This document shows, one piece after another, positions 3,085-30,892 of a DNA stretch of 64,000 nt (within the stretch, counting starts at the first letter, position 1; every line of letters begins with the position of its first letter). Position numbers and translations under genes: made by a program. Origin of the DNA: an uncultured Actinomycetes bacterium (GTDB taxonomy: Bacteria; Actinomycetota; Thermoleophilia; Gaiellales; JALYLC01). The stretch spans positions 66,500 to 130,499 of the forward strand of contig CAVPLI010000002.1 of assembly GCA_963705965.1 (NCBI GenBank), given 5' to 3'. The notes under the pieces were generated by a model. It made no database searches, had not been told where the DNA came from, and was given only the letters and a program-made list of their open reading frames with translations.

Positions 3085-4197
3085 TCATGCGTTCGCCTGC
3101 TCGGCCCGGGCGATCGTCCGCAGACGGTGGAAGAGCGCCTCGAGCGCGAGGGTCGGCGTAATTGTCAGCTCCAGCGCTCGGCGCGTGTCGCGCGCGGCCT
3201 CGAGGCAGCGCGCGGCAAGTGCTTCACGACCGTTTGCAGCATCTTTTGCAGCCTGCTCGCGGTGGTCCGAGTGTACCAGCGTGTCATCGGCTCCGAGCGT
3301 CGCAGCCAGCAGATCGCGGTACCAGGTGACGAGCGTCTCGACGGCCGCCCGCGCCTCCTCGACCTCGGCCGCGCGGCCCCGGCGCTTGGCCAGCGCCTCG
3401 CCCTCGCGGCGGACGCGCGAGGCCTCGGCGCGCGGCGGATGGTCGCCGAGCGCCTCGACGCGCTTCGCGGTCTCGCCCTCCGCGATCTCGCGCGCCTCGG
3501 CGCCGCGAGCGCTGCAGGCCTCGGCGACGGCCCGCGCGGCGGCGCCGGGATCGAACGCCTCGTCGTCGTAGACCGCGCGCGCGAGCGCGAGGTAGCGCTC
3601 GCGCCGGTCGCGCGCCTCGCCGCCCTCGATCAGCTCGCGGGCGCGCTCGAGATCGCCGCCGCTCGCGCGCGCGAGCGCAAGACCGGCGGGGCCGCCGAGC
3701 CCGAGCTCCGTCGCGACCTCGGCGGCGGCGAGCGGTGCGAAGCGCACCGTCTCGCAGCGCGAGCGCACGGTTGCGAGCAGGCGGTGCGGCTGGGAGCACA
3801 CGAGGATCACGACCGCGTGGGCGGGCGGCTCCTCGATCGATTTCAGCAGCGCGTTCTGGACGACCTCGGGCATCGTCTCGGCGTCCCAGATGAGGTAGAC
3901 GCGGCGCTCGGCCGAGAACGGCCGCAGCTGGATGTCGCGCCACAGCTCGCGCACCTGGTCGATGCGGATCTGCGTGCCCTCGGGCCGCACCTCGAGCAGG
4001 TCGGGATGCCCGCCCTCGAGCGTGCGCTCGGGCAGGCCCGCGAGCGCGGCCGCGAAGCGCCGCGCATGGGCGGCGACGCCGTAGCCGGGGCGGCCGAGCA
4101 GGAGGTACGCGTGGCTGGGCCGGCGCAGCGCGACGCGCAGCCGTGCGCGCGCGGCCTCGTTGCCGATCAGCCCGTGGAACGGATCGGTCTCGCTCAT
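3085..4197 (-). CDS. holB: DNA polymerase III subunit delta prime
   Basis: N-terminal clamp-loader AAA+ module (SHAYLLLGRPGYG, QNALLKSIEEPP, SRCETVRF). Its start overlaps the tmk stop. Confidence 0.9.
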   Translation of the reverse strand: MSETDPFHGLIGNEAARARLRVALRRPSHAYLLLGRPGYGVAAHARRFAAALAGLPERTLEGGHPDLLEVRPEGTQIRIDQVRELWRDIQLRPFSAERRVYLIWDAETMPEVVQNALLKSIEEPPAHAVVILVCSQPHRLLATVRSRCETVRFAPLAAAEVATELGLGGPAGLALARASGGDLERARELIEGGEARDRRERYLALARAVYDDEAFDPGAAARAVAEACSARGAEAREIAEGETAKRVEALGDHPPRAEASRVRREGEALAKRRGRAAEVEEARAAVETLVTWYRDLLAATLGADDTLVHSDHREQAAKDAANGREALAARCLEAARDTRRALELTITPTLALEALFHRLRTIARAEQANA

Positions 4198-4829
4198 AGG
4201 CCGAGCGCCTCGCGCACGCGTGCGGCGATGATCTCCGCGTCGCCCGTGCCGTCGACGCGCACGAGCCGGCCGTTGCCCGAGGCGAGCACGTCGTCGTAGG
4301 CGGCGATCACGTTGCGGTGGAACTCGATCGGCTCCCGCTCGATGCGATCGGCCGAGCCGGGGTCGCGGCGCTCGGCCGCCTGCTCGGCCGTGACGGCGAG
4401 CAGGACCGTCGCGTCGGGCCGCAGGCCGCCGGTGCCGACGTCGTTGATGGCGCGCACCGCATCGGCCCCGACGCCGCGCACGACGCCCTGGTAGACGAGC
4501 GAGCTGCCGACGAAGCGGTCGGCGATCACCGTCGCCCCGCGCGCGAGCGCGGGTGCGATGACGTCCTCGACGAGTTGCGCGCGCGCGGCGGCGAACAGCA
4601 GTGCCTCGGTGCGCGCCCCGAGCGGCGCGGTGCTGTCGAGCAGGAGCGTGCGGACGTGCTCGCCCGCCTGCGTCCCACCGGGCTCGCGCACCTCGACGAC
4701 CTCGCGGTCGAGCCCGCGCAGGTGTGCGGCGAGCAGCCGCGCCTGCGTCGTCTTGCCCGCGCCGTCGGCCCCCTCGAAGGCGATGAATCGCAGGGCGTCG
4801 CGGTCCGCGGCGCGCTGTTCAGCCGGCAT
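4194..4829 (-). CDS. tmk: thymidylate kinase
   Basis: FIAFEGADGAGKTT P-loop followed by REPGGT, 211 aa. Confidence 0.92.
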   Translation of the reverse strand: MPAEQRAADRDALRFIAFEGADGAGKTTQARLLAAHLRGLDREVVEVREPGGTQAGEHVRTLLLDSTAPLGARTEALLFAAARAQLVEDVIAPALARGATVIADRFVGSSLVYQGVVRGVGADAVRAINDVGTGGLRPDATVLLAVTAEQAAERRDPGSADRIEREPIEFHRNVIAAYDDVLASGNGRLVRVDGTGDAEIIAARVREALGL

Positions 4830-5016
4830 GGTCGATCACTTCCGCGAGGCTACACAAGGGCGCGTCGTGCCGCGCTCCTCGCGCCCGCCGCCGCACGGCT
4901 TGGTTGCTGCGGTTCGGGGTAGAGCGCTCCGAAATGGATCCGTCTGCGAACAACTGTCATGCTGAGGGCGACCACTGCCGATGGAACGACGATAGCCGCA
5001 CCGCGCAGGAGCTTGA

Positions 5017-5624
5017 ATGCGCATGGCGAAACGTGAGCCTCCCATGTCTGCAGCCCCCGCTTACATCGTGTACGGGCACCGCCACGCGGTGCGACTTGTG
5101 AGTCGCCTTGTCGCCATTGGTCTCCTGCTCGCCGCGATCGCCACCGTGCTCTTCGGCATCGTCTGGCAGCGCGGCTCCGACGGCAACCAGTCGGCGGCCT
5201 CTGCCCGCGGCTCGGCGGCGCGGCCATCGCCGTGCACCACGATCGCACCGGCAACGCCTCGGTGCCCGTCAACAAGCCCGCGGCCAAGACGCCGCCGCCC
5301 GCGACGAAGCCCAAGAAGCACCGTCCGGCAAAGCCGATCCCGCCGAACTCCAAGATCCCGGTGATGGTGCTCAACTCGAACGGCATCTCCGGGCTGGCGC
5401 ACCAGATGGCGGCGCGCCTGCAGGGCGCCGCGTATCCGATCGCCTACGTCGGCAACGCGCAGAAGCGCGGCCTGCCCACGATCGTGCAGTACGCGAAGGG
5501 CTACGGCCCGGCCGCGAGGAAGCTCGCGAAGCTGGTCGGCAACGTGCAGTTCGTGACGCCGCTCGACGGCATCACGCCCTCGCAGGCCGGCAAGGCCAAG
5601 CTCATCGTCATCCTCGGCACCTAG
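5017..5624 (+). pseudogene. LytR_C-domain cell-envelope protein, split by a -1 frame change as assembled
   Basis: The ORF at 5017 supplies the cytoplasmic N-terminus and a TM helix (LVAIGLLLAAIATVLFGIVW), then turns into Arg/Pro junk. ORF 5232-5624, in another frame, supplies a Pro/Lys linker plus the LytR_C domain (IPVMVLNSNGISGLA...KLIVILGT). The junction is near 5215. Confidence 0.6.
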
Positions 5625-7648
5625 CCGCCCGTGGTACACGCGTCGCTGGCCGCGATGACCTCGTCATCGGAGCCCGCGAAGACGTTGTCGTGGCCCGAGA
5701 GCGCACGCGCGCGGGCGAGGCTCGCCCTCCACGCGGGGTCGTTCCAGCACCAGCGCTGATAGCCCGCCAGCGTCAGCCAGACCTGGGCGTCCTCCCGCGC
5801 GAGCGAGAGCGCGTGGTCGACCGCGCGGCGCGCGTCGCGCGGGCGGTCGAGCGCCTGCAGCAGGCTGGCGCGCTCGAGTTGGACATCGACAGACGTGCGG
5901 TCGAGCGCGCCCGCGAGGTCGGCCTCGACGCGCGCCTCGTCGAGCCGGCCCTGCCCTTCGAGGCGTCCGGCCCGGTCGAGCCCGCGATTGCTCAGCACCG
6001 GAAGCGTCGCGGGGATGATGGCGAGCGCGAAGACGGCCGCGGCGACGACCGCGAGGCCGCGGCGGGGCGGGCGCGCGACCGCGACACCGCCGCCCGCCGC
6101 GCAGGCGATGAGTGCGGGGATCGGGTAGGCGAGCAGCGTCAGTGCGCTCTGCTTCCACTCCCAGTCGATCTGGTTGTGCAGCGCGAACGCGCCGACGCCG
6201 GCAGCCAGTGCGAGCCCGGCGGAGCGCTCGCTGCCGCGCAGGCGCGTGACCGCCGCCACGCAGGCGCCGGCGGCTGCGAGCGCGATCGCTGCCGGGATCG
6301 CGCCCACCAGCCCGAGGCCCGAGAGCACGTGGAAGAGGATCGAGTGCTCCTGGCCGGCCTGCTGGAAGTCGGGTCGTGCGAGGCGGTCGATCGTCTCGAA
6401 CGTGTCGGCGCCGTTGCCCTGCAGCGGGTGGGCGGTGAACCCGTCCCAGGCCTCGCCCCACCAGCGGCTGCGGAGGTTCGTCGAGAGCGAGTTGAGATGA
6501 TCGGTGGAGCCGACCGCGCCGCCGCCGGAGATCTGGTTCCAGGCATGGCTGAGCGCGCCGCCGGGGCCGCCGTGCGCCGAGGAGAGCTTGACCGCCGCCG
6601 CGACTGCCCCGATCACGAGCACCGCCGCGGCGACCTGGCCGCAGATGCGGCGCACGCGCTCGTCCGCGCGCTGCGCCAGCTCGACGGCGAGCGGCCCGAG
6701 GATCGCCGCCGCCAGCACCGCCGCTGCCGAGTACCAGACCAGGCGGTCGCCGGCGGGCACGGTGAACGGCGCGTCGAGCGCCTTGAAGGAGCGCAGGTCG
6801 ATGCCCCAGCGAGCGACCGGGACGGTCACGACGAGCACCGCCAGCGCGGCCGCTCCGGCCTCGGTCCTCCGGTCGCTGAGCGCGAACCAGGCGGCGCAGC
6901 CGATCACCGCGGCGAGCATGCCGCCGCGCGAGGAGGCCAGCGCGAGGCCGAGCACGAGCAGCGCGAGGGTGCCGCTCCCGGCGACGCGGCGGGCGCGCTG
7001 CGGCGAGCTCGCGAGCCACAGTGCCGCGGGCGCCGCGAGCGCCGCGTAGGCGCCGATCGCGTTCGGGTAGCCGAGCACGCCCTGCAGCCGCGGCGAGGTC
7101 TGGAAGAACACGCCGTCCGCGCGTTGCTGGATCGCGTAGGCGACGAGCGGCAGCGAGGCGGCGCAGAGCACCCACGCGGCGCTCTCGAGTGGACGGCGGA
7201 GCAGGCCGGCGAGCAGGGCACCGGCCGCCGCGGCGCCCGCGGCCACGAGCCAGCGGTTGGCGTCGCCATAGGACGTCTGCGGCGTCAGCGACCAGGCGAT
7301 CGAGGCGTAGGACGCGAGCGCGGTCAGCGCGAGTGCGCCGACGTAGACCTGCACCCGGCGCGGCGGCAGGGTGGGCACGTAGACGCCGGCGGCCGTGGCG
7401 ACGGCGGCGAGGGCGAGGGCTCCGAGGCAGACCGCGACGCCCAGTGCGATGCCGCCGCTCGAGGCTCCGCCACCGCCTTCGATCGCGACAACAGCGGCCA
7501 GCGCCAGCCAGACGGCTGCCGGCCACGCGCCCGCCGCGTCACGCAGGGACGCACTGACAGGACGCACAGGAGTAGGATAGTCGGGCACTGACGGGAACCT
7601 GTCGACGACGGCAGGCGCCCGCGGCCGATGCAGGCGTGACCCCAGCAC
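5621..7648 (-). CDS. O-antigen ligase (Wzy_C) family polytopic membrane protein with a C-terminal helical-repeat domain
   Basis: The 675-aa ORF has more than 10 hydrophobic helices and a central loop (ASSRGGMLAA...) typical of O-antigen ligase-like proteins. The start codon is uncertain. Confidence 0.8.
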   Translation of the reverse strand: MLGSRLHRPRAPAVVDRFPSVPDYPTPVRPVSASLRDAAGAWPAAVWLALAAVVAIEGGGGASSGGIALGVAVCLGALALAAVATAAGVYVPTLPPRRVQVYVGALALTALASYASIAWSLTPQTSYGDANRWLVAAGAAAAGALLAGLLRRPLESAAWVLCAASLPLVAYAIQQRADGVFFQTSPRLQGVLGYPNAIGAYAALAAPAALWLASSPQRARRVAGSGTLALLVLGLALASSRGGMLAAVIGCAAWFALSDRRTEAGAAALAVLVVTVPVARWGIDLRSFKALDAPFTVPAGDRLVWYSAAAVLAAAILGPLAVELAQRADERVRRICGQVAAAVLVIGAVAAAVKLSSAHGGPGGALSHAWNQISGGGAVGSTDHLNSLSTNLRSRWWGEAWDGFTAHPLQGNGADTFETIDRLARPDFQQAGQEHSILFHVLSGLGLVGAIPAAIALAAAGACVAAVTRLRGSERSAGLALAAGVGAFALHNQIDWEWKQSALTLLAYPIPALIACAAGGGVAVARPPRRGLAVVAAAVFALAIIPATLPVLSNRGLDRAGRLEGQGRLDEARVEADLAGALDRTSVDVQLERASLLQALDRPRDARRAVDHALSLAREDAQVWLTLAGYQRWCWNDPAWRASLARARALSGHDNVFAGSDDEVIAASDACTTGG

Positions 7649-7851
7649 GCGACCGAGGCGAATTGCGTTCCGAAAGCGCTCAAGGTCGAAAGGGTGACTG
7701 CCGATACCTCGATCGGGTGAGGTAACGCCGGCCCGCTATGAATCTTCACGAAACACTTACCAACCCGCCTACCATCGCTCACGCGGTCCCGGTACCGTCT
7801 GGTCTGCGACAGGGTGATACGTCTGTACCTCCTTCCCCTGGCGCCACACAC

Positions 7852-24372: not shown

Positions 24373-25275
24373 ATGCCGCGCGCACTCTGGAGCGGAGCGA
24401 TCTCGTTCGGTCTCGTCAACGTGCCGGTGCGCATGTACACGGCGATCAGCGAGCACAACGTGCACTTCAACATGCTGCGCGCCAAGGACGCCGAGCGGAT
24501 CCATTACCGCAAGGTCGCCGGCTCGAGCGGCCGCGAGGTGCCGGACGATCAGATCGTCAAGGGCTATGAGATCTCGGACGGCGAGTACGTCACGCTGACC
24601 GACGAGGAGATCGCCGCCGCCCACGTCGAGGGCGACAAGGTGATCGAGATCCACGAGTTCGTGCCGCTCGAGGAGATCGATCCGCTCGTGTTCGAGCGGA
24701 CGTACTACCTCGGCCCGGCCGATGGCGCCGAGCGGGTCTACGCGCTGTTCGCGAAGGCGCTCGAGTCGTCGGGCCTGGTGGGCATCGCGAGCTTCGTGTT
24801 CCACGACCGCGACCAGCTCGCCGCCGTGCGCACGAAGGACGGCGCGCTGCTGCTCTCCCGCATGTACTTCGCCGACGAGATCCGCGACGACGACGGCATC
24901 CTCCCCGACCGCAAGCGCTCGGTGGACAAGCGCGAGCTGAAGCTCGCCACCGACCTGATCGAGCGGATGCAGGGCACCTTCGACCACTCGGCCTACCACG
25001 ACCGCTATCGCGACCGCCTGATGGCGATCATCCAGAAGAAGCGCAAGGGCGAGACGATCACGGCGCCCGAGGTCGAGGAGCGGAAGGCGCCCTCGGATCT
25101 CATGGAGGCGCTCGAGGCCAGCCTCTCGGAGGCGGTCGGGCGCAGCAAGGCGAGGAAGGCGCCCGCTGCGGCTCGCAGCACGCCGGAGAAGAAGGCCGCG
25201 CGGAAGAAATCGCCGAAGCCGGCCAAGCCCGGAAAGACCGCGAGGAAGAAGGCCGCCAAGCCGACCGGCTCGTGA
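24373..25275 (+). CDS. ku: NHEJ DNA end-binding protein Ku
   Basis: MPRALWSGAISFGLVNVPVRMYTA is the canonical bacterial Ku start. The C-terminal tail is Lys/Ala/Pro-rich. Confidence 0.92.
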   Translation: MPRALWSGAISFGLVNVPVRMYTAISEHNVHFNMLRAKDAERIHYRKVAGSSGREVPDDQIVKGYEISDGEYVTLTDEEIAAAHVEGDKVIEIHEFVPLEEIDPLVFERTYYLGPADGAERVYALFAKALESSGLVGIASFVFHDRDQLAAVRTKDGALLLSRMYFADEIRDDDGILPDRKRSVDKRELKLATDLIERMQGTFDHSAYHDRYRDRLMAIIQKKRKGETITAPEVEERKAPSDLMEALEASLSEAVGRSKARKAPAAARSTPEKKAARKKSPKPAKPGKTARKKAAKPTGS

Positions 25276-25329: not shown

Positions 25330-26319
25330 ATGGCTGAGCATCTCGAGGAGTACCGGGCCAAGCGCCACGCCGGCAAGACGCCCGAGCCGCTGAAGCCGAC
25401 GCGCAAGCGAAAGCGCGGCGATCCGCTCTTCATCGTCCAGCGCCATTCCGCGCGCCGGTTGCACTACGACCTCAGGCTCGAGCGCGACGGCGTGCTGCTC
25501 AGCTGGGCGCTCCCGCGCGGCGTGCCGCTGCGGGCGGGCGAGCGCGCGCTCGCGGTGCACGTCGAGGACCACCCGCTCGAGTACGCCGACTTCGAGGGCG
25601 AGATCCCGCACGGGCAGTACGGCGCCGGCTACGTCGAGCTGTGGGATCGCGGCACCTACGAGCTCGTGCGCGAGCGCCCGGACGGCACGCTCACCGTGAT
25701 TCTGCACGGCGGCAAGCTGGAGGGCGAATGGGCGCTCGTCCCGGCCAAGCTGGACGGCGAGGAACGCAACTGGCTGATCGTGCGCGCCTCGAAGGACGGG
25801 GCGGCAGGCCCGCAGCGCGGCTACGAGCCGATGGTTCCCCGCGCGGCCAAGCGGGTGCCGGCCGGAGCCGACTGGGCATTCGAGATCGCCTGGGACGGAG
25901 TGCGCGCGCTCGCTCCCATGGAGGGGACGCGGGCGCACTTCCAGCACGACGCCGGCGACGAGCTCGACGAGCGCACCAAGCAGTTGCTCGCGCGCATGCC
26001 CCGGGCCGTGCGCACGAGCGACTGCGTGCTCGACGGCGTGATCTGCTCGTTTCCGGAGGGCGTCGTCTACGTCGTCACCGACCTGCTCGACCTCGAGGGC
26101 GCGTCGCTGATCGACCTGCCGTGGTGCGACAGGCGCACGCGACTGACGGGCCTGCTCGACGACCACGTGGGCGAGGTGCGTCTCTCACGCGACTACGACG
26201 ACGGTCCGGCGCTGCGCACGGCTGCACGCGCTCAGGGCCTCGGAATCGTGGCCAAGCGCCGCAAGTCGCCGTACCGGCCGGGCGTCGTCAGCGACGACTG
26301 GCGGCTGCTGCAGCCCTAG
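25330..26319 (+). CDS. LigD-like protein: 3'-phosphoesterase domain fused to a degenerate, truncated ligase nucleotidyltransferase module
   Basis: The PE domain looks intact (FIVQRHSARRLHYDLRLE...SWALPRGVP...VEDHPLEYADFEGEIP). The downstream module aligns by eye to the LigD ligase core but reads FEIAWDG where KxDG is expected, VLDGV for LDGE and WRLLQP for WxKxK. It stops before any OB fold. Confidence 0.8.
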   Translation: MAEHLEEYRAKRHAGKTPEPLKPTRKRKRGDPLFIVQRHSARRLHYDLRLERDGVLLSWALPRGVPLRAGERALAVHVEDHPLEYADFEGEIPHGQYGAGYVELWDRGTYELVRERPDGTLTVILHGGKLEGEWALVPAKLDGEERNWLIVRASKDGAAGPQRGYEPMVPRAAKRVPAGADWAFEIAWDGVRALAPMEGTRAHFQHDAGDELDERTKQLLARMPRAVRTSDCVLDGVICSFPEGVVYVVTDLLDLEGASLIDLPWCDRRTRLTGLLDDHVGEVRLSRDYDDGPALRTAARAQGLGIVAKRRKSPYRPGVVSDDWRLLQP

Positions 26320-26349: not shown

Positions 26350-27601
26350 ATGGCCGCATGGCCCGTTCGGATCGATGCAGATCGTATGAGCGCGGTACTC
26401 GGGCGCCCGTCCGTGCGCGCGCACGGGCTGGCAGTTGGCGCGCTCCGAGTCGGGCAGTGGCTCCTCCTGTGCGTGCTGCCGCTCGCGATCGTCGGGACGA
26501 CGCTCGTCGCGAGCTTCCACACCGGCACGGGCGCGTGGGCGCTCGACTTCAACGGCAACTTCGTGATCCCGGCGCGGGACATCCTGCACGGCGTCTCGCC
26601 CTACCACCCCGCGTATCTCGAGCGCGTACGCGATGCGGTCGCGGCCGGCCATCAGCCGGACGAGTTCTCGCGCGGCGTGTTCGCGACCTATCCGGCGCCC
26701 GCGCTGCTGATCGGCGTGCCGTTCACCTATCTGCCCGCAGCCGTCGCCGAGTGGCTCTGGGTCGGGCTGAGCATCGCATCCGCGGCACTCGCGTTCCGCC
26801 TCGTCGGCGTGCGCGACTGGCGCGTCTACGGCGCCGCGCTGCTGGCGCCGGCGGTCGGTACGTCGCTCTCGTACGGCACGGTGCAGTGCTTCCTCATGCT
26901 CGGCCTCGCAGCGACCTGGCGGTGGCGCGACCACGCCTGGCGGGGCGGCCTCGCGCTCGGCGCGCTGATCGCGATCAAGCTGATCTTCGTCCCGCTGATC
27001 GCCTGGCTCCTGTTCACCCGCCGCTGGGCCTGCGCCGCGGTCGCCGCCGCCTCGTCCGCCGCGCTGTGCCTGGCCTCATGGGCTGCGATCGGCTTCGACG
27101 GCTTCACGGACTACCCGCACGTGCTCTCGCTGCTCACCCAGATCGAGAAGACGCAGGGCTTCTCGAGCGGCTCCTACGTGCTCTCGCTGGGACTCGGCGA
27201 CGGTATCGCCAAGGCCATGCCCTACGCGCTCGGCTGCTGCGTGATCGGCCTGCTCTGGCTCGCGATCCGGCGCGGCGGCGAGCACGCCGACGCCTACGGC
27301 TTCCTGCTCGCGACGCTCGCGGTGATCGCGTTCTCGCCGATCGTGTGGCTGCACTACCTCGCGCTGCTGCTGGTGCCGGTCGCCGTGCTGCGACCGAGGC
27401 TCGAGCATCGCCTGGTTCGTGCCCTGCGTGATGTGGGTGATGCCGTTCGCCGCGTTCACGCCGGCCAACACGATTCACCGCACCGTGTTCCTGGTCGCCC
27501 TGCTCGGCACCGTGATCTTCGCCATCGGCCCGCGCGCCGTCGCCGCGCTGCTGAGTGGCCGGTCGCGCGTCGAAGCTGGCACACTGCCCTCGTGGCGATG
27601 A
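26350..27601 (+). pseudogene. GT87/DUF2029-like polytopic glycosyltransferase, one +1 frame change near the 3' end
   Basis: Many TM helices. The frame of 26350 is sensible up to ...LLLVPVAVLRPRL. The hydrophobic tail SIAWFVPCVMWVMPFAAF...VFLVALLGTVIFAIG continues in the frame of ORF 27419-27601. The junction is at about 27403. Confidence 0.7.
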
Positions 27602-27858
27602 GGCCGACCTACCACGTGCGGATCGAGTACTGCGTCCCCTGAGGGGCGTCGCCGAACGCCGCCAGTCTGGCGGCGCGCATCGTCGAGGGATGGTCGCCGA
27701 TCCTGACCGCCGTCGAGCTCGTGCCCGGGACCGGCGGTGTGTTCGACGTCGACGTCGACGGCGAGCGCATCTTCTTCAAGAAGATGATCGGCCGCTATCC
27801 GCAGCCGGACGACGTTCTGCCGCTCCTGCGCGAGCGCATCGGGCCCGAGGTGCTGTAG
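27598..27858 (+). CDS. Rdx/SelW-like selenoprotein candidate (TGA 27640-27642 read as selenocysteine)
   Basis: MRPTYHVRIEYCVP-U-GASPNAASLAARIVEGWSPILTAVELVPGTGGVFDVDVDGERIFFKKMIGRYPQPDDVLPLLRERIGPEVL. It has a CxxU redox motif and Rdx-type downstream blocks. GC3-rich codons continue in-frame past the TGA. There is an ATGA overlap with the upstream stop and a hairpin 15 nt after the TGA. Confidence 0.7.
27657..27675 (+). other. SECIS-like hairpin downstream of the in-frame UGA
   Basis: CGCCGCCA-GUC-UGGCGGCG: 8-bp stem with G and U in the apical loop. The loop lies about 25 nt from the UGA. Confidence 0.55.
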
Positions 27859-27869
27859 TCCGTCCCGGG

Positions 27870-28904
27870 TCAGGCGAGGTCGCCCTGGAGGGCGCCCGCG
27901 TCGACGACCACGCGCCCGTCGAGAGCAACCGTGCAGCCGCGCATCGGCAGGTCGAAGTGGCCGGCCGTGTAGCGGCCCGCGTTCTCGTTGGCGCCGGTCG
28001 AGAACAGGAAGTTGCCGGCGAACGCGCGCGCCTCGGTGCCGTTGATCTGCGCCTTGTCGTAGAGCTCGAGGTAGTCCCAGCGCGCGTTGCGGTTCATGCC
28101 GAAGCCGACGTGGCTGACCGCGTAGCTCTCACGGTCGCCGAATGCCGCGAGGTAGGAGCGGAAGAGATCCGCGTCGAGCCCATCGCCCTCGATCGCGACG
28201 ACGTGGTCGTCCTCGATGCGCAGCGTCACGGGCTCGCGGACGTACGTCTTGAACGTGAGGTTGATGTCGCCCGGTGCGAGCACGACGGTGCCCTCGACGC
28301 AGTGCGCGGCCGGGAACGCGAGGCAGAGGCCCCCGGGCCAGTGCGCGATCGTGCCCGGCTCGGTCGCGACGCCGGACGACCCGGCTCGGAACGCGCCGTC
28401 GAGCTTCGCGGTGAGATCGGTGCCCGCGGCCGACGTCACGTGCATCACGTCTGCCGCCTCGAGCAGCGCGACCCCGCGCTCGACGCGCTCGTCCAGCGAC
28501 GGATCCTCGGCGTAGCGCTCGAAGTTCTCCGGGTGCTCGTTGCTGATCATGAGCACGCGCGCTCCGCCCTGCAGGATCGCGCCCAGCTCGGGCGCGTGGA
28601 GCAGGCCCTCGACGGTGCAGTCGATCACGAGGCCCGCGGCGGCGAGGCCTGCGATCGCTCCCGGATTGCCGGCCAGCGCGACCGAAGCCCCCGTCGAGCG
28701 CAGCGCCACCGGCCCGCGGTTGGCCGGCGTCGGGACGACGACGTCGTAGACACGGCCGCCCAGCATCTGCGCGGCCAGGCGCGCGGTCTCGACCAGCTCG
28801 GGGCGGCTCGCCGACTCCGAGAGCACCGCGACGACCTCGCCGTGGCTGAGCGCGCACTGGCGCAGGTGCCGCGCGAAGATCTCGATCCAGCGCCACTCCG
28901 TCAT
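27870..28904 (-). CDS. 2,5-dihydroxypyridine 5,6-dioxygenase (NicX)-like, aminopeptidase-T fold
   Basis: The C-terminal blocks VSHVGFGMN...ARAFAGNFLFSTGANENAGRYTAGHFDLPMRGCTVALDG match what I recall of P. putida NicX. ATG 28904 overlaps the upstream stop (ATGA). Confidence 0.85.
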   Translation of the reverse strand: MTEWRWIEIFARHLRQCALSHGEVVAVLSESASRPELVETARLAAQMLGGRVYDVVVPTPANRGPVALRSTGASVALAGNPGAIAGLAAAGLVIDCTVEGLLHAPELGAILQGGARVLMISNEHPENFERYAEDPSLDERVERGVALLEAADVMHVTSAAGTDLTAKLDGAFRAGSSGVATEPGTIAHWPGGLCLAFPAAHCVEGTVVLAPGDINLTFKTYVREPVTLRIEDDHVVAIEGDGLDADLFRSYLAAFGDRESYAVSHVGFGMNRNARWDYLELYDKAQINGTEARAFAGNFLFSTGANENAGRYTAGHFDLPMRGCTVALDGRVVVDAGALQGDLA

Positions 28905-29706
28905 CGCGCTGCCTCGACGGCGCCGAGATGCGCGCGCAGCGCGGCGTTGACCGCCTCGGGCGCCTCGACGTTCGCGATGTGGCCGGCGCCGGGAGCGACC
29001 CGGAGCACCGCGCCGGGGATGCCGTTCGCGAGCGCCTCGGCGTACGACAGCGGCGTCTCCTTGTCGTGCTCGCCGACGACGACGAGCGTCGGTGCGCCGA
29101 TCTCGCCGAGGCGGTCGCGCACGTCGTGCGTCGGCAGGAACTCGACGGCCGCGCGCAGGCCGTCGGCCGAGATCCGGGCCATCGACGCGGCAACCGCGGC
29201 GACAGCTCCCGCGTCGACGTCCGGCGCCATGATCGAGCGCAGCACGGGCTCGGCCATGCTCGCGGGCGTCTCCCCGGCGTCGAGCGCGTCGAGGCGCAGC
29301 CGCTTCCAGGCCTCGGGATCGGTGCCGTCGAGGCCGAAGGCCGGACTCGAGTCGAGCAGGACGAGCGAGCGCACGCGACCGGGATGGCGCAGCGCGGTGT
29401 GCAGCGCGATCTGGCCGCCCATCGAGAGGCCGGCGACGTGCGCCTGCGTCTCTCCGAGCGCATCGATCGAGGCCGGCGACGGAGTCCGCCAGCGCCGGGA
29501 ACGAGAGCCCGCCCGCGGGCATCGGCGACGCGCCGTAGCCCGGCATGTCCCACGCGACGCAGCGGTAGTCCGGAGCGAGCGCCGCGAGCTGGGGATCGAA
29601 GCCGGTGCGCGTCATGCCGAGCCCGTGCAGGAACAGCACGAGCGGCCCCGAGCCCGCCTCGCGCCAGGCCACCGGTGTCGGCGTCGACGTCGCGGAAATC
29701 AGACAT
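28901..29706 (-). pseudogene. alpha/beta hydrolase (NicD-like position), one or two +1 frame changes as assembled
   Basis: MSDFRDVDADT|VAWREAGSGPLVLFLHGLGMT...SFPALADSVAGL|IDALGETQAHVAGLSMGGQIALH...GAGHIANVE. The GxSxG nucleophile elbow and the HG oxyanion motif lie in different frames. Junctions are at about 29673 and 29468. The first disappears if the gene starts at GTG 29672. Confidence 0.7.
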
Positions 29707-30892
29707 GACGGTGATCTTCGAGCTCCCCGTAGAGGCCGAAGCGGCCGAGCAGCTCGAGGCACACCTCGGCGCTCCAGGGCAGCATGACCGAGCCGCAGCG
29801 GGCGTCGCGGTAGTGCTGCTCGAGCGGGAGGTTGCGCATCAGCGACCCGCCGCCGCAGGCGCGGATCGCGAGCGCGGCCACCTCGGGCGCCGTCTCCATG
29901 GCCGTGTACGAGGCCGCCCATGCGCGCCGCAGTTGCTCCGGAGTCGGGTCGAGGCCGGCTTCGGCGACGGCGCACTCCCAGAGCGACCGGCTGCGCTCCC
30001 AGGCGATCTGGATCTCGGCCCAGGCCCACTGCTTGGGCGCCACGTCGCGCCGCGCGGGAATGCCGGGCGGCGGGTTGCTGCCGAGGTAGCCCTGCACGAA
30101 GTCGACGACCGCGCGCGTGAGCCCGATGTAGGTCGGCGTGAGCGTGAGGTAGACGTGCGGCCAGCGCGCGGCGAGCTGGTCGAAGAGGCCGGTCGGCAGC
30201 AGCTCGTCGTCGGCCGCGACGTAGGCGTCCTTGAAGACGAGCGTGCGCGAGTCGGTGCCACGCATCCCGAGCGTGTCCCAGTCGCCGACGATCTCGACGC
30301 CCGGGTTGTCGGAGCGCACGGAGAGGAAGCGCAGGCCCTCCTCGCCCGGCACGCGGCAGGTGAAGTTGTAGGCGTGCGCGGCGCCCGCGAGCGACGCGAA
30401 GACCTTGCGCCCGTTGATCTCGAAGCCGCCTTCGACGGGCGTCGCCGTCGTCGCCACGCCGGCCGTCGCGCCGCGCGCGATGCCCTCCGAGAGCGGCTGG
30501 CTCATGATCGCGCCGTCCTCGAGGATCCAGCGGTAGAGCTCGGCGCGCCGCACCTCGTGGCGCTCGCGCACGTCGGCCGGCATGTCGAGGTCGTCCGCGA
30601 GGATGCCCGTCCAGAGCACCGTCTGGCTGTGCATGTTGTACGTCAGCGCCGTCGTCGGGCAGAAGCGCGCGAGCTCGGCCGAGATGTACATGTAGTCCTT
30701 GAACGTCGCGCCCATGCCGCCGTAGCGCTCGGGGATGCAGAGTCCGAGCATCCCGGCGGCGCGCAGCTCGTCGTAGTTCTCGAACGGGAACGCGGGCTCG
30801 CGGTCATACGCCGCCGCGCGCTCGGCGAACGCCGGGCCGAGCTCGTGCACGAGCGCGATCACGCGCGCGCGAAGATCGCCGGCGTGCGTCAC
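29699..30892 (-). CDS. acyl-CoA dehydrogenase-fold flavoprotein (dehydrogenase or group-D monooxygenase)
   Basis: ACAD family blocks from GTG 30892 (FPFENYDELRAAGMLGLCIPERYGG..., LGMRGTDS...). The stop overlaps the next gene's ATG by 8 nt. Confidence 0.85.
   Translation of the reverse strand: MTHAGDLRARVIALVHELGPAFAERAAAYDREPAFPFENYDELRAAGMLGLCIPERYGGMGATFKDYMYISAELARFCPTTALTYNMHSQTVLWTGILADDLDMPADVRERHEVRRAELYRWILEDGAIMSQPLSEGIARGATAGVATTATPVEGGFEINGRKVFASLAGAAHAYNFTCRVPGEEGLRFLSVRSDNPGVEIVGDWDTLGMRGTDSRTLVFKDAYVAADDELLPTGLFDQLAARWPHVYLTLTPTYIGLTRAVVDFVQGYLGSNPPPGIPARRDVAPKQWAWAEIQIAWERSRSLWECAVAEAGLDPTPEQLRRAWAASYTAMETAPEVAALAIRACGGGSLMRNLPLEQHYRDARCGSVMLPWSAEVCLELLGRFGLYGELEDHRHV

Follow-up and report, generated by a model that had tools for sequence, protein, structure and literature searches.

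Of the selenoprotein families recorded in the Sargasso Sea survey, the SelW-like proteins with a CxxU redox motif were the most abundant and accounted for 48 genes (PMC1088965). They count as one of the 25 bacterial selenoprotein families and have few cysteine homologues in organisms that use selenocysteine (Sec) (PMC1794560). Here we describe a gene of this type, referred to as the Rdx gene, at positions 27598-27858 of a 64,000-nucleotide stretch of DNA (the window; positions 66,500 to 130,499 of contig CAVPLI010000002.1, assembly GCA_963705965.1) from an uncultured bacterium of the Gaiellales. Its product and the bacterial SelW-like selenoproteins (PF10262/TIGR02174) are alike in the domain, in the length class of about 80-100 amino acids and in the N-terminal CxxU motif, in which Sec would be the second redox residue. 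Both have a hairpin of the selenocysteine insertion sequence (SECIS) type within the coding sequence directly downstream of the UGA, and in both Cys homologues are rare. The difference lies in the host, a member of the Gaiellales/Thermoleophilia soil Actinomycetota. For Gaiella, Gaiellales, Thermoleophilia or Conexibacter in combination with selenocysteine or selenoprotein, nothing relevant was present in the searchable literature. Judged from the sequence comparisons presented below, the in-frame TGA almost certainly encodes selenocysteine, and we assign a probability of about 0.88 to the reading of 27598-27858 as a Sec-decoded Rdx gene.

Reading frame, family and fold

The frame opens with an ATG (27598-27600) that shares the nucleotides ATGA with the TGA stop (27599-27601) of an upstream open reading frame (ORF, 27419-27601). 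It continues through MRPTYHVRIEYCVP to the TGA at 27640-27642 and over 71 sense codons to the TAG at 27856-27858, thus 86 codons including the in-frame TGA. Start, TGA, stop and the hairpin downstream were all found where the first-pass annotation of this DNA had placed them. It had also stated that the ORF list closes the upstream frame at this TGA and contains nothing for the remainder. The former was correct, the latter was not: a 45-amino-acid ORF with a GTG start is listed at 27721-27858. The G+C contents of codon positions 1, 2 and 3 after the TGA were 0.73, 0.45 and 0.93 in a window with 71 % G+C. This is the local coding signature, hence a coding signal is present downstream of the TGA. 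As TGA is an ordinary stop codon elsewhere in the window, where it ends 29 of 49 confident ORFs, the recoding has to be seen as local and site-specific rather than as the reflection of an altered genetic code.

Profile searches with a translation in which U was substituted by C placed the protein in the Rdx family. The Pfam model PF10262 was matched over positions 1-73 of 74 with an E-value of 9.2e-16 and a score of 58.3 bits, against a cutoff of 22.6. On their own, the 71 codons downstream of the TGA also matched this model (E 1.4e-8), so that the family assignment proposed from the sequence layout held for the whole frame and for its downstream part separately. The NCBIfam model TIGR02174 (CXXU_selWTH) scored 44 bits, above its cutoff of 34.2. 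The Campylobacter equivalog NF041051 (SelTWH_Campy) gave 67 bits at a cutoff of 88, hence the Rdx gene belongs to a different subfamily. Sequence matches in the PDB were SAV_2001 of Streptomyces avermitilis (3dex, 9e-14), Atu0228 (2fa8, 2e-10) and the further relatives 2oka, 2obk, 2ojl, MIEN1 and 2p0g, with E-values ranging from 9e-14 to 1e-5. The CxxC motif of these proteins, CTQC in SAV_2001, aligned to Cys12 and the TGA at codon 15, and C-V-P-TGA aligned with CVPC in P0006 and P0009, two full-length Cys homologues.

The structure was modelled with AlphaFold on the Cys homologue P0006, which is 62 % identical; 34 relatives made up the input alignment. A predicted local distance difference test (pLDDT) value of 91 and a predicted template modelling score (pTM) of 0.81 were obtained. 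The model presents a thioredoxin-like topology, b1(5-12)-a1(18-32)-b2-b3-b4-a2, with the CxxC/U motif between strand b1, ending at residue 12, and helix a1, beginning at residue 18. In a Foldseek search with this model the bacterial SelW-related structures 2oka, 2fa8, 3dex and 2obk ranked highest with TM scores of about 0.8, followed by MIEN1, mouse SelW (2npb) and thioredoxins. The Cys-containing Rdx structures (3dex, 2fa8, 2oka, 2obk, 2ojl and 2p0g) thus resemble the Rdx protein in sequence, in the modelled fold and in the alignment of CxxC to C..TGA, but they have Cys at the position of the putative Sec and exceed it in length by about 20 residues. The Rdx fold and the position of the CxxU/CxxC motif recur in mammalian selenoprotein W (2npb) and MIEN1 (2ljk), whereas the sequence identity is only about 25 % and the eukaryotic SECIS element lies in the 3' untranslated region and has a different structure. 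The best explanation of the region is a gene of the Rdx (SelW/SelT/SelH) family for a redox protein with a thioredoxin fold and the active site Cys12-Val-Pro-Sec15.

The UGA codon and the downstream hairpin

A species-level scan with one genome per GTDB species yielded 169 relatives, and the best 80 of these were read at the DNA level. All 80 were metagenome-assembled genomes (MAGs) labelled Gaiellales, Gaiellaceae, Thermoleophilia or unresolved Actinomycetota, with protein identities of 58-88 %. Every one of them had TGA at this codon (80/80). Altogether TGA was retained in 82 of 82 distinct relatives compared as DNA, a set that includes these 80, and the only other codons observed were TGT and TGC, in one further sequence each. 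Orthologues are carried, e.g., by the complete chromosome OY969787.1 (3.43 Mb, L044) and by CAVRMM010000002.1 (4.17 Mb, L033). The motif C-V-P-TGA was kept in all 82 apart from one CQP and one CAP variant. Gene callers report the downstream 45-amino-acid fragment in identical form from nine public contigs of various samples and assemblers, with only a weak Rdx match in Pfam, and C-V-P-TGA-G preceded it on each of the nine. Among the best 120 protein matches, 118 were N-terminally truncated gene calls, fragments of 50-69 amino acids that the Joint Genome Institute (JGI) often names 'selenoprotein W-related protein'. If the TGA is read as a Sec codon, gene callers cut off the active-site end of the protein. 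The first-pass annotation had expected standard callers to miss the gene; this applies to the full gene, whereas its fragments are called in public data.

The only full-length proteins among these 120 were P0006 and P0009, both with IEYCVPCGA, and their DNA had TGT and TGC at the site. Cysteine therefore pairs with the TGA in these two sequences as it does in the CxxC proteins 3dex and 2fa8, and no orthologue with a codon other than TGA or Cys was found among the 82 distinct TGA sequences and the two Cys forms. Both results are as the first-pass annotation had anticipated for a selenoprotein. Variation was calculated as entropy by codon position over 84 in-register relatives. In the ten codons before the TGA the values were 0.38/0.30/0.63, in the 71 codons after it 0.64/0.44/0.97. 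Most variation thus falls on third positions upstream as well as downstream of the TGA, and both sides evolve as protein in the Rdx frame.

The hairpin consists of CGCCGCCA, the loop GUC and UGGCGGCG, forming a perfect stem of 8 bp that begins 15 nucleotides after the TGA. If the U of the UGA is taken as nucleotide 1, the loop G has number 26. Opening of the A-U closing pair results in a 7-bp stem with an AGUCU loop. In a 61-nucleotide context the pair probabilities were about 0.8. The comparison with relatives was based on an ungapped alignment of 82 distinct sequences. The eight pairs were formed in 98.3 % of the alignment cells, compensatory changes occurred in four of them (22 cells), and none of 500 shuffles reached any of five hairpin measures. 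Sliding the 3' arm by 1-3 nucleotides as a control reduced pairing to 24-64 %, and RNAalifold independently predicted the same stem.

The hairpin lies within the stretch that encodes the beginning of helix alpha-1 (N-A-A-S/G-L-A-A), consequently the same nucleotides serve the protein and an RNA signal. Wobble positions of the two arms pair with each other; the alanine codons GCC/GCG change together to GCG/GCC, and AAC/GCG to AAU/GCA. Some lineages have Thr (ACC) instead of Ala on one arm and, correspondingly, Val (GUG/GUC) instead of Ala on the other. RNA pairing thus visibly couples amino acid changes in the codons of this helix (P-N-A-A-G-L-A-A). Synonymous variation was depressed in the hairpin codons +5 to +11, with third-position entropies of 0.09-0.77, whereas invariant Gly, Pro and Val codons elsewhere had values of 1.0-1.6.

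The SECIS element of Escherichia coli fdhF is similar in that a hairpin in the coding sequence just after the UGA presents an apical GGUCU on a G+C stem. A check against 5,420 E. coli entries annotated as fdhF confirmed this sequence at 100 % identity. The fdhF bases G23 and U24 correspond to G26 and U27 in the Rdx gene, one codon further from the UGA. Reportedly, G23 and U24 contact the Sec-specific elongation factor SelB, according to work of the Böck laboratory. The stem of the Rdx gene differs from that of fdhF, being a perfect G+C helix of 7-8 bp with no evident bulged U. The loop is AGUCU in the window instead of GGUCU, but among the 82 relatives 67 have GGUCU and 15 AGUCU (closing pair GU in 67 and AU in 15).

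The consensus model of Zhang and Gladyshev for bacterial SECIS elements, as given in Fig. 2 of PMC13188914, has four criteria, and the hairpin falls within all of them. The model describes an apical loop of 3-9 nucleotides and an upper stem of 4-16 bp; observed were 3 nucleotides and 8 bp, or 5 nucleotides and 7 bp with the closing pair opened. A G is required in the first two loop bases in the pattern N1-G-(G/U)-N-N2 with N1 and N2 pairing, as in the A-G-U-C-U of the window. The spacing between UGA and apical loop was 22 nucleotides (27643-27664), or 21 if the closing pair is counted to the loop, within a permitted range of 16-37, and it was identical in all 82 relatives as their alignment is free of gaps. 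The free energy of the 19-nucleotide hairpin was -14.4 kcal/mol at a threshold of -7.5 kcal/mol or lower. The geometry of a bacterial SECIS element, which the first-pass annotation had ascribed to this hairpin, was thus confirmed in a conserved and covarying structure.

Further observations concern the surroundings of the UGA. The Pro codon preceding it was CCC in 82 of 84 relatives, with a third-position entropy of 0.16 in comparison to about 1.0-1.3 at other invariant Pro codons; this may be a UGA context effect, for which it is weak evidence. A 4-bp mini-helix with the UGA in its loop (27632-27647) was proposed by RNAalifold. It had a single covarying pair (CG 43, UG 17, UA 12, broken 10), which probably reflects one clade, and the structure is not claimed here. 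A scan of the window for other coding regions interrupted by TGA found none, and no further gene combining a TGA with a GGUCU hairpin was detected in the window or in the scanned DNA of the relatives.

Proposed selenocysteine insertion and competing explanations

The best-supported interpretation of these sequence data is that SelB and a SECIS element bring about the incorporation of Sec as residue 15 of a CxxU protein with a thioredoxin fold. We infer the following course: a ribosome arriving at the UGA (27640) would encounter the hairpin 14 nucleotides downstream, which would offer its (A/G)GUCU loop to SelB carrying Sec-tRNA(Sec). SelB would supply Sec, and translation would proceed rather than terminate. 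The protein may then cycle between a selenol/thiol and a selenenylsulfide form in the manner of a miniature thioredoxin.

Several observations may be held against this interpretation. The window contains no tRNA gene detectable with ARAGORN and no Rfam match, thus no tRNA-Sec is present within the 64 kb. Neither the window nor about 0.6 Mb of flanking DNA of the relatives contained selA, selB, selC or selD. These searches comprised ARAGORN, tblastn with an E. coli SelD sequence, and queries with actinobacterial SelA, SelB and SelD proteins; the sole match was the GTPase domain of BipA. No contig bearing both a sel gene and the Rdx gene was found among the 80 Rdx contigs and the recovered sel loci. 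Rfam gave no match at the gathering threshold in the whole window, and a permissive search of 27590-27760 returned only unrelated families with E-values above 1. In the single sequence the hairpin was no better than chance: the 64-nucleotide fold had a z of 0.05 against shuffles, and a hairpin of equal quality, judged by identical loose criteria, follows 5.7 % of all TGA trinucleotides in the window. Single-sequence folding was rejected as evidence for these reasons, and the hairpin owes its significance to the comparison with relatives only. Finally, the hairpin persists in both Cys forms and hence is not strictly tied to the TGA.

The two Cys forms (L091, 344-595, and L092, 324-575, with TGT and TGC, respectively) retain the SECIS-like hairpin intact, in L092 with a compensatory U-A pair. 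They are most simply read as very recent conversions from Sec to Cys, which agrees with Sec as the original state in SelW-like proteins (PMC1794560).

In addition, a tRNA-Sec pattern based on the Rfam consensus was used to scan metagenome contigs and yielded 98 tRNA-Sec loci, many of them with selD-selC-selA-selB clusters. The SelD and SelA clusters recovered by cluster look-ups and a SelA profile search belonged to Propionibacteriales, Micrococcales, Mycobacteriales, Streptosporangiales and Nakamurella, none to Gaiellales; the taxon labels were Enemella, Arthrobacter, Mycolicibacter, Streptosporangiaceae, Nakamurella and Microlunatus/Friedmanniella. The 98 loci carried no Rdx gene and had no gene in common with the Gaiellales pool. 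Tetranucleotide similarity was tried for the placement of these loci and failed to separate phyla.

A frequent tRNA-Sec type from soil was 93 nucleotides long without an encoded CCA, e.g., at 9325-9417 of L214 (ERZ25039533:contig_31307, a MAG contig of 3.45 Mb), and also in L192, L211, L208 and L169. It adjoins genes for a small secreted protein, a HAD-IB hydrolase and a pair of extracytoplasmic function (ECF) sigma and anti-sigma factors, and not selA, selB or selD. The lineage label is 'Actinomycetota bacterium' only, and no tie to the Rdx gene was established. Another locus (L098, 4523-11244; RJWC01000001.1, SelD identical to that of Enemella evansiae) represents the classical actinobacterial cluster of formate dehydrogenase, selD and tRNA-Sec, which is known biology. 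Its formate dehydrogenase alpha subunit has an in-frame TGA between the ORFs 4523-5092 (ending in ENQARI) and 5186-7831, and the locus also encodes Fe-S and membrane subunits, selD and tRNA-Sec.

The UGA might be read through without a Sec pathway, by a near-cognate tRNA for Cys or Trp or by local recoding, with a hairpin that merely slows termination. Such a mechanism would suit the lack of sel genes in the searched DNA of this lineage and the Cys forms, which show that cysteine is functional at position 15. It does not account for the sense codons at the site, which are only Cys and number two against 82 TGA, the classical Sec/Cys signature (PMC1794560), nor for a hairpin with the spacing and the G-U loop of a SelB-dependent SECIS element, including the pentamer of fdhF. 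Over the divergence of an order leaky read-through is unlikely to have been retained, as a single change from TGA to TGC gives full expression, and we regard decoding without a Sec pathway as very improbable.

Termination at the TGA is what automatic annotation implies by presenting truncated proteins for 118 of the 120 best matches. The product would be the shorter called protein of 45-69 amino acids, initiated at one of the internal GTG or ATG codons that are indeed present, and the upstream 14 codons would be untranslated or a leader peptide. These 14 codons, however, hold beta-strand 1 and the CxxU motif and lift the Pfam score from 35 to 58 bits, and R-I-E-Y-C-V-P is nearly invariant in the relatives, varying at third positions only. 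Gene calls in different relatives begin at different downstream positions, hence an internal start is not conserved, and according to the model a fragment devoid of b1 and the active site could not adopt the fold. A true stop is thus considered very improbable. As the window contains indel errors, among them a frameshift at 27402 in the neighbouring gene, it was also considered that the TGA stems from a Cys codon (TGC or TGT) through misreading or mutation, in a long-read assembly prone to errors. The identical TGA was present in short-read and long-read assemblies, in many samples and 80 species, and purifying selection acts on the frame downstream; with so many independent sequences this explanation is excluded for practical purposes.

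Genomic neighbourhood and significance

The features of the locus are compiled in Table 1. The junction GCGATGAGG with its ATGA overlap was identical in nine independent contigs (L001-L009), which suggests translational coupling of the Rdx gene with the GT87 glycosyltransferase gene in the close relatives of the window. In the orthologous contig L002 the upstream gene is intact, encodes 404 amino acids and matches PF09594 (GT87). In the window one extra C at 27402, in comparison to L002, breaks this gene (26350-27601) into two frames. The ORF list shows 26350-27642 as one ORF terminating at the Rdx TGA because this one-nucleotide insertion brings the 5' portion of the glycosyltransferase gene in frame with the Rdx gene. 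Comparison of the window with L001 and L002 showed 96-97 % identity and about 100 gaps per 10-15 kb; these gaps, including the one at 27402, look like indel noise of long reads rather than biology.

Table 1 Features of the Rdx locus in the window
Feature	Position	Strand	Basis or remark
Predicted SelW-like selenoprotein coding sequence, 85 residues	27598..27858	+	14 codons, UGA (Sec15), 71 codons, TAG; Pfam, TIGR02174, third-position G+C, variation
ATGA overlap of Rdx start and GT87 glycosyltransferase stop	27598..27601	+	ORF list; junction in contigs
CxxU redox motif: TGC (Cys12), GTC, CCC, TGA (Sec15)	27631..27642	+	conserved in relatives
In-frame UGA, putative selenocysteine codon	27640..27642	+	TGA conservation, Cys replacement
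SECIS-like hairpin: 5' arm 27657-27664, loop GUC 27665-27667, 3' arm 27668-27675	27657..27675	+	folding and covariation
45-amino-acid fragment with GTG start, reported by ordinary gene callers instead of the full gene	27721..27858	+	ORF list; public calls
Upstream gene for a GT87-family membrane glycosyltransferase, context, split in the window	26350..27601	+	PF09594 in the L002 orthologue

Directly upstream of the glycosyltransferase gene are a gene for a Ku protein (24373-25275) and a LigD-like ORF (25330-26319), which would be a non-homologous end-joining pair; the Pfam assignments, Ku and a faint DNA_ligase_A_M, derive from the orthologous locus L002. The convergent gene downstream (27870-30029, minus strand) is in L001 a single fusion of an alpha/beta-hydrolase and NicX with 611 amino acids. 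The two parts occupy different frames in the window, the hydrolase at 28901-29611 and the NicX-like one from 27870 to about 28900; this is either another indel or a pair of overlapping genes. Clustering of the flanks of 80 loci revealed no partner gene conserved throughout the order; with a neighbourhood that is not conserved, a functional partner of the Rdx protein is not inferable. In the Gaiellaceae-type loci L038, L042, L043, L045, L047, L048, L052, L053, L057 and L062-L064 a tRNA-Gly(GCC) gene is located within a few tens of nucleotides after the Rdx stop (about 3260-3440), and in two loci tRNA-Thr(UGU) takes its place.

The gene is an ordinary member of the Rdx family and not surprising to a specialist. 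New are the host lineage and the uniform Sec form across 80 species-level genomes. General knowledge of selenoproteins and of the Rdx family remains unchanged, the use of the finding lies in annotation and in the ecology of selenium use. It reveals a systematic annotation error: the Gaiellales gene appears as a fragment of 45-69 amino acids without active site, or not at all, and the fragment annotation renders proteome and selenoproteome counts of the Gaiellales wrong. The alignment of 82 sequences provides a clean natural case of a SECIS hairpin laid over a helix-coding segment, with covariation at synonymous and non-synonymous sites. By implication, selenocysteine is in use in a widespread group of soil Actinomycetota, for which the searchable literature contains no record of it. 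We lean slightly towards the view that the Sec form of the Rdx protein is fixed, and probably ancestral, across the Gaiellales/Thermoleophilia. If so, this very abundant aerobic soil lineage would retain the whole Sec machinery at least partly for a redox protein of 85 residues, and the selenium supply of soils could matter to these bacteria.

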